A stretch of 64,000 bases of DNA. It comes from a virus. The notes below the pieces were generated by a model that saw only the letters and a list, made by a program, of their open reading frames with translations, did no database searches and had not been told where the DNA came from. The position numbers and the translations under genes are program-made. Positions 6,560 to 10,140 of this stretch are shown here, one piece after another (position 1 is the stretch's first letter; each line of letters begins with the position of its first letter). The stretch lies in IMG/VR virus record IMGVR_UViG_3300037258_001185, positions 1-64,000 of that record. One strand, written 5' to 3'.

Positions 6560-7147
6560 CTACTCCAATTGCGGCGCCACGCGCCGCATGTTCGGGCCGT
6601 CCGACGGGCCGCTGAAATGGACGGTCACCGATGCGGCCTCACGGGCCGCGCGCATTGCGCGAAGGCGCGCCGTAACCCCGTCTGGACCCTCAGGGCCATA
6701 GCGCCCTGTGCTATCGAGCAGCACGGCCCGCGGGTTGCGCCCGAGGCGCAGCCCGAACATCAGCGTGTCCCACGCCTCGCGGTGGTCGGAGCGAAAGAAC
6801 GGAAGGGGCGCGGCCCATATCGCAAAATCGTGCTGCGGACCGCGCAGCGCGGCGGGATCGTCGACGCTATAGATCTCGGAGACGGCGCCGGTCGGCCAAG
6901 AAAGGCGCGCGCGCGGCCAGTCCACCGCGGGGAGCGAAGGTGAGAAATGCCACATGAAGGCCAGATCGCCCGTCACACGATCAGCGGTGGTCACCAGGGC
7001 GATGCGTTTGCGCTCGTCGGCGATGGCCGCAAGCATGAGATCGTGAAGCGCAAGCCGACGCGGGCGCGCGACCCGCACAATGTCGATCTGGAGGCCGACA
7101 TTGTTCTCGGCGAGCCAAGAGGCGACACGGGAGGTTGGATCGGTCAT
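6560..7147 (-). CDS. degenerate paralog of the terminase large subunit ATPase domain (Walker A/B lost)
   Basis: shares KRIALV, RL.WP.GA, LRGPQHDFA and EAWD.LMFGLRLGR.PR with TerL at 49486-50922. Confidence 0.8.
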   Translation of the reverse strand: MTDPTSRVASWLAENNVGLQIDIVRVARPRRLALHDLMLAAIADERKRIALVTTADRVTGDLAFMWHFSPSLPAVDWPRARLSWPTGAVSEIYSVDDPAALRGPQHDFAIWAAPLPFFRSDHREAWDTLMFGLRLGRNPRAVLLDSTGRYGPEGPDGVTARLRAMRAAREAASVTVHFSGPSDGPNMRRVAPQLE

Positions 7148-8454
7148 CCGGCGTCTCCTTGCGGATTGCGATGATCCCCGAGAGCGGCGGCAGGATTACG
7201 ATGGCCTTGCGGCACTCCGGGGCTGGCCGCCACGCTCGGGGATGGGGTCAGAAGGGCATCGGCACCGGTACAATGGCCTTGCGGCAGGAACTCCTTGGCC
7301 TTTGCTCTCCTGGTGGGCTTGGCGCGGACGCCGGTCATCACGGACATGGCGGTGTCCGCGCCGATCAGGGCCGAAGCGGAGTCGGCATAGGCAGTCGGGC
7401 CTTTCGGCAACCTTCGGACGGCGTTCTCCGCTTCGGTTTGGTTCGGGGCGCCGGCGGCAACGGTCGCATGGCCTTGCGGCATCAACCAATCGGCCTCCGG
7501 CGCCCCGATCTCTTGTGCCGCGACCTCGGCGTGCCAGACACGCCACAGGTCGCGCAATACGCGCTTGGCCATGAGGCGCCGGGCGGCCATGTCGGCGTGC
7601 GCCGGCGTCCATTTGTCGGGGTTCTTCTTGCCGCCGAGCTCGGCCGGCAGGTCCGCCGTGGCGGCGACGCGCAGCGTGTACCGCGCCTTCGCCCGCCCAT
7701 AGACCTCGCCATAGGGGCCGATCGCGTGCGCCTCGGCAACAATGCCGAACGGCTCGGCGAGTTCCCTCAACTCCTCTATCTTCTTGACTTGCTTCAGGTC
7801 GATGTCGCGGCGCTGGATTTCCGCAGCGGCGGCCGGGTCATCCTCCAGCGCCTTACGGTAAGCGCCGACCTCACTGCACCATTGCTGCCTCAGCATGGCA
7901 TCATAGATGCCGACATAGATGGCGGAACGCCGCCACTTGTGCATCTGGCGTACCGCCGTCTCGTTCTCTCCCGCGCCCGCGAACCCCAGACCGAGCCGCT
8001 TCCACATTTTCGAATGGGAGGGGAAATCGGACAGACCCCGGTCCTGCGCGCCGTGGCAATGCGCCACGATCACGGCAAACGTCAGATCGCCAAACCCATT
8101 GACGGACCTGACCCAGGCGTAGGCCGGCAACTGCGGCGCCAGCCGCTCCATTTGCCGCTCGATCTTTTTCCTCTCCTTTTCGAACAGGGCGACCGCCACC
8201 AATGCGGCCATGACCGCGCCGCGCCAGGCCCCGGCCGTGTTCTCGGCGCCCTCGGCATCTGCCTTGACCGCAGCGACGATCTGACGGGCGCGTGCCGCGA
8301 TCTTCTCGCTTTCGGCTTTCGACAGGTCGCTGCGCCACCCGAGGGCGCTGCGAAGTTGTCCTCCCATGCGATTTGAAATCGCCGTCGTTTGACTGACGAG
8401 GCCGGCCCTGACCCGATTGAGTCCGGCCAAGGCCTGCACCGCGTCGCTCAGCAT
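7144..8454 (-). CDS. IS110-related Nop-domain RNA-binding protein, TasA-like (no RuvC or HNH domain)
   Basis: coiled coil, then WVRSVNGFG...AVIVA...LSDFPSHSKMWKRLGL, Y..VY...KARY and HA...ARR.MAKR.LRDLWRVW; no N-terminal DEDD domain; guide-like units inside and upstream. Confidence 0.75.
   Translation of the reverse strand: MLSDAVQALAGLNRVRAGLVSQTTAISNRMGGQLRSALGWRSDLSKAESEKIAARARQIVAAVKADAEGAENTAGAWRGAVMAALVAVALFEKERKKIERQMERLAPQLPAYAWVRSVNGFGDLTFAVIVAHCHGAQDRGLSDFPSHSKMWKRLGLGFAGAGENETAVRQMHKWRRSAIYVGIYDAMLRQQWCSEVGAYRKALEDDPAAAAEIQRRDIDLKQVKKIEELRELAEPFGIVAEAHAIGPYGEVYGRAKARYTLRVAATADLPAELGGKKNPDKWTPAHADMAARRLMAKRVLRDLWRVWHAEVAAQEIGAPEADWLMPQGHATVAAGAPNQTEAENAVRRLPKGPTAYADSASALIGADTAMSVMTGVRAKPTRRAKAKEFLPQGHCTGADALLTPSPSVAASPGVPQGHRNPAAALGDHRNPQGDAG
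7174..7508 (-). ncRNA. TIGR-like stem-loop guide array 1 (4 dual-spacer units and 1 single-spacer unit)
   Basis: units at 7174-7243, 7249-7312, 7371-7436 and 7443-7508, each stem + CCN-9nt-TGCC(GNRA)GGCCN-9nt-TG + stem; half unit at 7321-7362. Confidence 0.8.
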
Positions 8455-9227
8455 GACAGACCTCCGGCGATGCGCAGCGCCTCCGCCATGATCGCCTCGG
8501 TGATCTGGCTGCGGATCGGTTTGCGCGGGTCCGCAATCAGGCTGCAGAGCGCTTTGGCGAGCGCGAGGTTGCGGCCCGTCCGCTCAGCCCAGGCGCCGAC
8601 CTCCTCGGTCGTGCAGTCGAGCATCGAGCGGCCGTTGACGCGAACTTCCTCAAATTCGGGATGGGCGGAACTGCGGACCGCAGCGGCGGCGTGCATCGCC
8701 CGCAAGCGACCCTGCTGGATTTCTTCACTCGGCGCCGGGGGCGAAACAGCGGTTGCTTGGCCTTGCGGCACTCGGTTGCTGGCCTCGCCCCCGGCATGGG
8801 TTGCCGTTCCCGGATCTGCATTACGGCTCGGGCCTCGCGGCAATCCGGTTCCGGCCTCTCCGGGAACGGCATTTTGTCCGACCCGCGCATCGGCATCTGT
8901 AGCCTGGCCTTTCGGCAAAGATGCCGTGGCCTTTGCGCGGGTCGGTGTGGTTTCGCCTTTGCGGCGAATTTCGTCGTCGAGCGATTTGTTCAGCGCCGGG
9001 CGGCTTGCACCGCAGTATTCCCACAGGATCGCCTCCGGGTCGGCGTCCCGGCTGACGCAGAGCCGGAAATAGCCGTCGTTGCCATCGACACCGAACAGTC
9101 GCACCTCATCGCGCCGGATCACCTTGAGGCGTTCCCGCGGCGTCAGCGGCGGCTCTGGCTGTATCCTTGAAACGGCGCGCCGCAACTGGTCGTTGACCTG
9201 TGCTTCCAATTCACTTTCCCCCATCAT
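8448..9227 (-). CDS. hypothetical protein carrying an in-frame guide array
   Basis: open frame overlapping the Nop gene start; PKG/PRG/PQG peptide repeats arise from the loop repeats; start at 9224/9227 uncertain. Confidence 0.6.
   Translation of the reverse strand: MMGESELEAQVNDQLRRAVSRIQPEPPLTPRERLKVIRRDEVRLFGVDGNDGYFRLCVSRDADPEAILWEYCGASRPALNKSLDDEIRRKGETTPTRAKATASLPKGQATDADARVGQNAVPGEAGTGLPRGPSRNADPGTATHAGGEASNRVPQGQATAVSPPAPSEEIQQGRLRAMHAAAAVRSSAHPEFEEVRVNGRSMLDCTTEEVGAWAERTGRNLALAKALCSLIADPRKPIRSQITEAIMAEALRIAGGLSC
8734..8945 (-). ncRNA. TIGR-like stem-loop guide array 2 (3 units)
   Basis: units at 8734-8795, 8802-8871 and 8878-8945 with perfect 11-13 bp stems and GCAA/GCGA/GAAA loops. 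Confidence 0.8.
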
Positions 9228-10140
9228 CACGGGCTGCCGCCGCCGAGGCATCGGGATTTCGGCCTTCCGGCATATTCCTTATGGCCTCGGCGGCGCCCTC
9301 GGTCGTGGCGTCCATCAGGAAATCAGTGTTGGTGACGGTCGGCGCCGCCGGCGGCAGGTCGCGCACCTCTTCGAGGATCGACAGGCCGCCGAGGTTATCC
9401 ATGAAGCCGGCGCGCAGCGCGATCGCCGTCGCCCGGACCATCAGCATTTCGCCCGGCGCGTTCATCCACCACGGCCGCTTCGGGTTGCGCCACAGACCGG
9501 CCCGGCGCGCGTCACGGATCGAGTAGCGGCCGACATAGGGCTCGCTTTGGCCGCGGCGCCAGATGCGGTAATCGGCGCTAACGGCGTCGGTGAACTCGGC
9601 CAGGGTGTTCTCGTCGCGGACATCGTCGGGGACGCCGAGCAGCTTGCGCTCGACCCGCTCGACCAAGCCGCCGCGCTGCGCCAGGGCGAGCGCGCCCGCA
9701 CACAGAATGCAGTAGCGGCCGTCCTGCAGGATGATCTTGTCGAGCGCCGTCGAAGGCGGCATGCCGAGGTCGGCGCCCATGCGGATCGCGACGACGAGGC
9801 GCGCCTTTGTCTGCTTGTCGTTACCCGTGACGACGAAGGTGTTCGGCACCGTGCCGGCGCGGATCAGCTCAATCGCCCGCTGGCCGGCCTCGCGCGCGGT
9901 GACACGCGGGGGCGCATACCCGGCCTTGATACGCTCCGGCGTATCGGCAGGATTCGCAAATCCGGCCCGAAGCGGCGCGGGCGCCGCCGGCCTTTCGCGC
10001 ACTTGTGAAGCGCCCCGGTTCCGGCCGCCTTTGTCGGTCAGGCCATCCGACAAAACAACGCGGCCGACAACGAGATCCCCATCACAAACATGCGTATCTT
10101 GCGCTTTTTGTTTGCCGACCGAGGCGCTGATAACGGACAT
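9211..10140 (-). CDS. RecT-like single-strand annealing protein
   Basis: G.DLGM.P..AL..I, YSI.DARRAGLW...PW....P..ML..RA...ALR..F.D.LGGL...EE; start uncertain (10140 or about 10002). Confidence 0.7.
   Translation of the reverse strand: MSVISASVGKQKAQDTHVCDGDLVVGRVVLSDGLTDKGGRNRGASQVRERPAAPAPLRAGFANPADTPERIKAGYAPPRVTAREAGQRAIELIRAGTVPNTFVVTGNDKQTKARLVVAIRMGADLGMPPSTALDKIILQDGRYCILCAGALALAQRGGLVERVERKLLGVPDDVRDENTLAEFTDAVSADYRIWRRGQSEPYVGRYSIRDARRAGLWRNPKRPWWMNAPGEMLMVRATAIALRAGFMDNLGGLSILEEVRDLPPAAPTVTNTDFLMDATTEGAAEAIRNMPEGRNPDASAAAARDDGGK
9238..9295 (-). ncRNA. single TIGR-like unit
   Basis: CGCCGCCGAGG CCA TAAGGAATA TGCCGGAAGGCCG AAATCCCGA TG CCTCGGCGGCG. Confidence 0.75.

Follow-up and report, generated by a model that had tools for sequence, protein, structure and literature searches.

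Introduction

The closest described relatives of the locus analyzed here are the TIGR-Tas systems, in which Nop-domain Tas proteins carry no nuclease (TasA), a RuvC nuclease (TasR) or an HNH nuclease (TasH) (Faure et al. 2025, PMC12045711). A TIGR unit is defined there by two spacers of 8-12 nucleotides (nt), each with a CCA-like box C on its 5' side and a box D (UG) on its 3' side, and in a second type of array variable palindromic stems take the place of the edge repeats. The resulting stem-loop tigRNA consists of box C (CCN), a 9-nt spacer and box D (UG), present twice within a variable closing stem (PMC12045711; 10.64898/2026.09.09.750476). The 13 stem-loop units accompanying a TasA of a Peromyscus gut contig were expressed, processed and bound by the protein (PMC12045711). 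Xu et al. (2026, 10.64898/2026.09.09.750476) annotated 2,559 stem-loop arrays and reported that such arrays can sit in the tas coding sequence with the frame intact, that the loop between the spacers is mostly 9 nt long and sometimes folds into a hairpin, and that a CUU at the stem bases is a frequent, not a defining, mark of processing. They also described TasA and dead TasR as RNA-guided transcriptional repressors, with TasA (BlTasA, MbTasA) binding target DNA. Structures of PlTasA display a continuous unwound region with one heteroduplex per strand (Guan et al. 2026 preprint). Here we analyze the first 64,000 nt (the window) of the virus record IMGVR_UViG_3300037258_001185, a contig of 84,251 bases and 67% G+C from a soil metagenome, in which a 436-amino-acid (aa) protein gene, tasA, is accompanied by eight two-spacer hairpin units. 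The one sequencing run listed for this DNA, which may be its source, is of soil metagenome DNA. We conclude, with a probability of about 0.88, that a soil phage here carries a stem-loop TIGR-TasA system within its early recombination operon. Systems of this kind have been described before (Faure et al. 2025; Xu et al. 2026), and the locus adds a further example, with three local features: a GNRA-capped helix between the spacers, the lack of the CUU motif, and a phase-locked embedding in three open reading frames (ORFs), two of which are not tas. An earlier reading made from the sequence alone (the original prediction) had proposed a TIGR-Tas-like system, and every structural feature of such systems that was looked for was found, the CUU motif excepted.

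Eight two-spacer hairpin units on the minus strand

The pattern CC-N10-TGCCGNRAGGCC-N10-TG has eight exact matches on the minus strand of the window, with a mean of 0.00 over 100 dinucleotide-preserving shuffles, and no further unit of this plan is present in the whole 84,251-base record. All eight units share a 36-nt core reading CCN, 9 nt, TG, CC-GNRA-GG, CCN, 9 nt, TG, so that each (8/8) holds two spacers with a box C (CCN) on the 5' side and a box D (UG) on the 3' side. The loop tetranucleotide is GCAA in four units, GAAA in two, and GCGA and GGAA in one each, and the 16 spacers are all mutually distinct. The array extends from 9297 down to 7174, all units lying within 2.1 kilobases (kb) around tas:

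9236-9297, minus strand: unit 1; core 9249-9284; spacers TAAGGAATA / AAATCCCGA; loop GGAA; last ~29 codons of the RecT-like ORF
8878-8945, minus strand: unit 2; core 8894-8929; spacers CGGCATCTT / GGCTACAGA; loop GAAA; within ORF 8448-9251
8802-8871, minus strand: unit 3; core 8819-8854; spacers GAACCGGAT / GAGCCGTAA; loop GCGA; within ORF 8448-9251
8733-8796, minus strand: unit 4; core 8747-8782; spacers GCAACCGAG / AGCAACCGC; loop GCAA; within ORF 8448-9251
7441-7510, minus strand: unit 5; core 7458-7493; spacers ATTGGTTGA / TGCGACCGT; loop GCAA; 3' tail of tasA
7371-7436, minus strand: unit 6; core 7386-7421; spacers TCCGAAGGT / GACTGCCTA; loop GAAA; 3' tail of tasA
7249-7312, minus strand: unit 7, with the weakest stem; core 7263-7298; spacers AGGAGTTCC / TTGTACCGG; loop GCAA; 3' tail of tasA
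7174-7243, minus strand: unit 8; core 7191-7226; spacers GCCCCGGAG / TCGTAATCC; loop GCAA; 3' tail of tasA

GG-CCN stands before every spacer and TG-CC after it; of the two junctions, the outer stem closes one and a GCC-GNRA-GGC mini-helix the other. Because both spacers have the same setting and each is closed by a helix, the RNA is pseudo-twofold symmetric, a design that would fit the symmetric dimer described in PMC12045711. The element between the spacers is 13 nt long (UG + CCGNRAGG + CCN) and forms the GNRA-capped mini-helix, whereas 9 nt is common in relatives.

Nine copies of the 12-nt centre TGCCGNRAGGCC are present in the window, where 0.20 would be expected; the ninth, on the plus strand at 40468, is not accompanied by the other parts of a unit. 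No Rfam family matched positions 6000-10500 at E-values (E) up to 1. Between units 6 and 7, a perfect hairpin of 9 base pairs (bp) at 7321-7362 (minus strand) encloses 24 nt that read CCG, 9 nt, TG and then ATGA-CCG-GC, i.e. a single box C/spacer/box D cassette with no second spacer. It folds with a z-score of -3.3, and the covariance model of the units did not match it at E up to 10. It may represent a decayed unit, a half unit or a chance structure.

Closing stems vary in sequence and keep pairing

The closing stems comprise 13-17 in-register positions with 11-16 pairs, and seven of the eight units fold better than their shuffles (z -3.1 to -7.6). When the eight units were aligned without gaps, 84.5% of the stem cells were paired, compared to 60.0% when the 3' partners were shuffled, and sliding the 3' partner by 1-3 columns lowered pairing to 29-44%. 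Compensatory changes on both sides were found at 14 of the 18 outer-stem pairs, and none of 500 shuffles reached any of the five measures used. A covariance model built from the eight units scored them at 65-75 bits; the next place in the window (18795-18863, 19.8 bits) lacks the core motif and was discarded.

The units, their GNRA loops and their 16 different spacers are exactly those listed in the original prediction, and its proposal that stems which vary and still pair reflect selection on RNA structure is borne out by the covariation. Each unit is closed by its own in-register stem, with perfect runs of 8-13 bp (9-13 bp in the original prediction); the stem of unit 7 is the weakest.

The units accompany tas in related loci

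We collected 38 loci (29 viral and 9 genomic) encoding relatives of the 436-aa protein; four pairs were near-duplicates, leaving 34 non-duplicate loci. To count as a strict unit, a sequence had to read CCN-9-TG, 4-10 nt, CCN-9-TG and to form no fewer than 9 of the 12 in-register pairs in its flanks. The tas strand carried 90 strict units up to 1.5 kb from the tas match, and the opposite strand 1; farther away there were 1 and 0, respectively. At least one strict unit was present in 30 of the 38 loci and at least two in 23. The covariance model of the window units, applied to the 34 non-duplicate loci, gave 33 matches at E up to 0.1, every one on the tas strand (33/33).

The insert between box D and the following box C was 4 nt (inter-spacer loop of 9 nt) in 63 of the 83 units of the non-duplicate loci and 7-12 nt in the remaining 20. 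In these longer loops the first pair of a mini-helix forms in 20 of 20 cases (CG 12, UA 6, GC 1, UG 1), a result reached by none of 1000 shuffles, and the second in 17 of 20, no better than shuffles. Changes at the first pair thus lend some covariation support from other loci to a mini-helix that is invariant in the window.

Spacers of different loci were at most one base apart in 2 of ~18,640 comparisons, where about 2 are expected by chance; they are hypervariable and not conserved between loci. The resemblance of spacer B of unit 8 to a spacer of one related locus (8 of 9 bases, L018) fits chance. The homologous loci thus contain unrelated spacers and compensated stems, and not the invariant spacers and uncompensated stem changes that the original prediction had named as evidence against itself. 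The neighbours of tasA in the window (the 195-aa ORF, the orphan ORF, the RecT-like gene and the exonuclease VIII gene, described below) were found in none of the 38 related loci. This gives no indication of a partner gene, and the gene with its array behaves as a self-contained module.

The locus shares with described stem-loop TIGR-TasA systems a solo nuclease-less Nop-domain protein, 9-nt spacers between box C and box D, variable palindromic stems, conservation limited to the bases beside the boxes, a phage setting, and sub-arrays located on both sides of tas and in frame within its coding sequence. It differs in the inter-spacer element described above, in the presence of four units in frame in two non-tas genes and in stem bases without CUU.

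A predicted nuclease-less Nop-domain protein

The gene at the centre of the array is:

7144-8454, minus strand: tasA, encoding a 436-aa nuclease-less Nop-domain protein; core residues 1 to ~312 (7519-8454)

A word-seeded search retrieved 23 relatives, which align to residues 1 to ~310 only and share the motifs GFG, WKRLGL, GPYGE-Y and ARR-M-K-LRDLW; the C-terminal tail of ~124 aa is encoded by units 5-8. The homologous region begins at residue 1-2, with only ~95 residues ahead of a helix-hairpin-helix motif. The protein represents a large family and is not an orphan: of the cluster representatives retrieved in an exhaustive profile search, 4,658 passed an E threshold of 0.001 and 1,875 one of 1e-30.

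A family profile made from 18 relatives was searched against all PDB sequences and gave four matches at E up to 10. The best was TasR (9mty_A, E 1.4e-10, residues 141-292 of 331), in the TasR ribonucleoprotein of Faure et al. (2025, PMC12045711), followed by a weak match to a set of TasH chains (E 0.12); the other two, to thioredoxin-like proteins, are attributed to chance. None of the IS110 transposase chains in the PDB was matched at this threshold. PF02371, the IS110 C-terminal domain, was weakly matched in 10 of the 18 family members (best E 3.8e-4), and PF01548, the DEDD domain, in one (E 0.043). No RuvC or HNH nuclease domain was detected by Pfam in the 436-aa protein, and the position aligned with the IS110 catalytic serine reads A-G. 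The only Pfam match reported for it, PGA_cap, is at chance level, and PHROG 4285, labelled 'transposase', matched it at 1.8e-14. Its ESM Atlas model (predicted template-modelling score 0.63, predicted local distance difference test score [pLDDT] 0.69) has viral clusters as structural neighbours (template-modelling score [TM] 0.66-0.72), including a 237-aa 'IS116/IS110/IS902 family domain' cluster of proteins limited to the IS110 C-terminal part (TM 0.66/0.85), while a full IS110 transposase cluster reached TM 0.53/0.43 only.

By these comparisons, the 436-aa protein belongs to the Tas branch of the Nop/IS110-C-terminal superfamily. This agrees with the original description of an IS110-C-terminal/Nop-like protein devoid of the RuvC DEDD domain and of the catalytic SG motif, and the profile comparison with Tas and IS110 proposed at that time separated the two, TasR being matched and IS110 not. 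Like the dual-repeat TIGR-TasR and TasH systems (TaTasR, PDB 9MTY; SpTasH), the locus combines a homologous Nop domain with a 36-nt core, CCA/UG boxes and two 9-nt spacers; unlike them, it has no RuvC or HNH domain, unique stems in place of a conserved edge repeat, and no regular repeat array.

Units are embedded in phase in three open reading frames

All eight units are contained in open reading frames, a point that the original prediction did not emphasize; units 5-8 are in the tail of tasA and the others in two genes upstream of it:

8448-9251, minus strand: orphan ORF of 267 aa (259 aa in the protein collection), its middle third encoded by units 2-4
9211-10347, minus strand: RecT-like ORF (PHROG 561 at 3.8e-6), with unit 1 at its 3' end

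The eight cores share one codon phase and are translated as [LVM]-P-[KRQE]-G-[QHPR], and the spacings within sub-arrays (75, 72 and 72, 123, 72) are all multiples of 3. If these are taken as independent events, the probability of this agreement is ~5e-4. G+C content at third codon positions (GC3) is 0.8-0.97 in the conserved gene parts, 0.5-0.7 over the units and 0.93 between units 6 and 7; for the orphan ORF, the flanks have values of 0.77-0.90 and the unit-bearing part 0.50-0.60. According to this pattern, the frames seem to be true coding sequences in which, over the units, RNA constraints outweigh codon bias. The location of guides inside neighbouring non-tas genes is a modest extension of the report of Xu et al., whose cited sections describe in-frame guides for tas only.

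These observations bear on a reading in which the repeats are selected as protein, the recurring [LVM]-P-[KRQE]-G-[QHPR] peptide being placed in disordered linkers and the hairpins arising as a by-product. The containment of 8/8 units in open frames, their single phase and spacings in multiples of 3 are what it predicts, and the GC3 of 0.93 between units 6 and 7 suggests that the tasA tail is translated. It is contradicted at the nucleotide level, as synonymous positions of the core are invariant (CCG 8/8, GGC 8/8), the stems covary as base pairs across unrelated peptides and GC3 falls to 0.5-0.6 over the units. Moreover, units of the relatives often lie at spacings that are not multiples of 3 (e.g. 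L003, L006). We consider protein-level selection a very improbable account of the repeats, one that is not exclusive of selection on the RNA.

The orphan ORF, whose stop overlaps the tasA start (ATGCTGA), has no Pfam or PHROG match, and a search among proteins 146-468 aa long gave no homologue besides the ORF itself. GC3 is low (0.4-0.7) over the first ~135 codons of the RecT-like ORF, which overlap the ORF at 10143-10595; translation of the RecT-like ORF probably begins near codon 136, at the rise in GC3. These genes belong to a leftward block that also includes exonuclease VIII (PHROG 412, 2e-46; the RecT-like gene being the PHROG 561 match listed above), and a T4-type large terminase is encoded at 49486-50919. 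Downstream of tasA, a 195-aa ORF (6560-7147, minus strand) has a start that overlaps the tasA stop (ATGA). It aligns over 119 aa with residues 79-190 of the large terminase encoded by the phage itself (Terminase_6N/6C), at 44.5% identity (E 9e-19). It is a shortened paralogue of the ATPase domain of TerL, located in the early operon, and its absence from the 38 related tas loci indicates that it is not a conserved Tas partner.

Weighing the assignment

Several results weigh against the assignment of the locus to the stem-loop TIGR-TasA systems. The 436-aa protein itself has no Pfam match at E up to 1, Nop (PF01798) and PF02371 included, and its Nop fold consequently rests on the family profile and the Atlas model (pLDDT 0.69). 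Unit 7 folds no better than its shuffles (z -1.1; 11 of 14 pairs). The CUU motif that Xu et al. place at the stem bases is present in none of the eight units; CTT is absent from all eight stem bases (0/8), and two units carry one 6 nt inside the 3' strand. Eight of the 38 related loci contain no unit under the strict definition. The remaining results of this type come from the search for targets.

The 8-nt 3' overhangs described in PMC12045711 imply a target in which one strand consists of spacer A and then the reverse complement of spacer B. Such a geometry is our own derivation, and the sentences of that report cited for the cut side disagree (5' versus 3'). In the phage's own 84 kb, searched in both geometries and with gaps of 0-3, near-matches were no commoner than for 56 mismatched A/B pairings and no match with at most 2 mismatches was found; the 338 kb of related loci likewise held no target with at most 2 mismatches. 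Three of the eight guides (1, 5 and 7) were searched for exact matches in viral contigs and gave 1, 2 and 1 matches, no contig was matched twice, and the matches of guides 1 and 7 fall in contigs of 36% and 44% G+C. A number of this order is expected by chance from the 18-mer frequency, and these matches were not retained as targets. The search for 18-mer targets put forward with the original prediction thus yielded no convincing target in the phage, the related loci or the viral contigs (three of the eight guides).

The two exact matches of guide 5 are at positions 1638-1655 of L041 and 12795-12812 of L042, inside a 1302-aa ORF. L041 and L042 are 91%-identical elements of 58% G+C in isolate genomes, with a terminase ~50-60% identical to that of the window. 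In Magnetospirillum molischianum, the host genome of a relative, two of that relative's own guides gave no match at up to 2 mismatches. In Azospirillum himalayense, the single guide beside a tas homologue (L030) matched 17 of 18 positions at G002:C107:91613-91630 (locus L039); the site is on a different contig of that genome, within a repeat-rich ORF of 667 aa, and has the derived geometry. The composition-corrected probability of this match is ~0.07 and a backwards control pattern also matched once; it was treated as chance.

That no DNA target turned up in the searches made could be taken to favor a ribonucleoprotein that targets RNA like a box C/D small ribonucleoprotein, perhaps to direct the modification of host or phage transcripts or to block them. 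The Nop fold and the box C/D logic are the same as in small nucleolar ribonucleoproteins (Nop5, Nop56/58), with which the locus shares the Nop domain and spacers flanked by C and D boxes, and would also share the binding of a dimer to a pseudo-symmetric guide. The locus has, however, no kink-turn boxes, L7Ae or fibrillarin: neither protein is encoded next to tasA, and relatives do not retain the neighbouring genes. Characterized Tas systems target DNA: TasR is reported to be inactive on RNA substrates, and the TasA proteins examined by Xu et al. bound DNA and repressed transcription. RNA targeting is accordingly judged just as improbable as selection on the peptides.

An IS110-type element or its remnant, with the hairpins acting as bridge-RNA-like recombination guides, is slightly less credible again. 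The family is labelled 'IS110 family transposase' by one source and 'transposase' by PHROGs, PF02371 is weakly matched, and the box C/D two-spacer plan is common to bridge RNAs and tigRNAs; the IS110/IS1111 recombinases (IS621, PDB 8WT6 as cited in PMC12045711) also share the RNA-binding-domain superfamily and helix-closed loops with two guide segments. In contrast, the 436-aa protein has neither a DEDD/RuvC domain (PF01548 being matched in the one family member mentioned above) nor a catalytic serine, and just ~95 residues precede its helix-hairpin-helix motif. The PDB search matched TasR and not the IS110 chains. The array consists of eight independent single-loop units and not of one two-loop bridge RNA, and tas with its array is found in unrelated phage contexts with neighbours that are not conserved.

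Finally, generic palindromic repeats (repetitive extragenic palindrome- or miniature inverted-repeat transposable element-like) or mRNA stabilizers or terminators, unconnected with the protein, might be suspected from GC-rich hairpins in a 67% G+C genome and from a terminator scan that lists plus-strand hairpins over units 1 and 2, but they are scarcely conceivable given that all eight units lie around tas and on its strand with none elsewhere in 84 kb, that the architecture recurs beside tas homologues in 30 of 38 loci with a 90 to 1 strand bias, that internal loops are conserved as well as stems, and that the terminator-like count (4) does not exceed that in shuffles (4.7).

Discussion

Under the preferred assignment to the stem-loop TIGR-TasA systems, the leftward transcript would carry the exonuclease VIII gene, the RecT-like gene, the orphan ORF, tasA and the TerL-like ORF together with the eight hairpin units, each of which would be freed by a ribonuclease. 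A TasA dimer may then bind each unit, one box C (CCN)/box D (UG) pair per protomer, with the variable outer stem closing one pair and the invariant GCC-GNRA-GGC mini-helix the other. The two 9-nt spacers would pair with opposite strands of a continuous 18-bp DNA site (spacer A plus the reverse complement of spacer B). As TasA has no nuclease, the complex is expected to occupy the site rather than to cut it, and could thereby block transcription or replication of a host, defence or rival-element target. Processing, dimer binding, target geometry and repression are proposed for this locus by analogy with characterized systems, and such non-cutting, programmable DNA binding and silencing would match the findings of Xu et al. 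on other TasA proteins.

TIGR-Tas systems are of interest as tools because they are compact RNA-guided DNA binders that require no protospacer-adjacent motif, and their natural targets, guide maturation and spacer acquisition are, in the reports cited, open questions. The locus does not change what is known of TIGR-Tas as a kind. It is well suited to asking whether translation and guide processing compete, and which RNase recognizes the units.

The location of the guides inside the RecT-like, orphan and tasA coding frames means that guide excision would cut the mRNA that encodes them. The array might thus double as a cis-acting switch on phage early genes, with guide output reciprocally coupled to expression of the recombination genes and of TasA, a proposal that we regard as speculative and rather unlikely. 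If it were true, the PxG-rich peptides encoded by the guides would be tolerated linkers, and the hairpin with one spacer that separates units 6 and 7 would represent unit turnover caught in progress.

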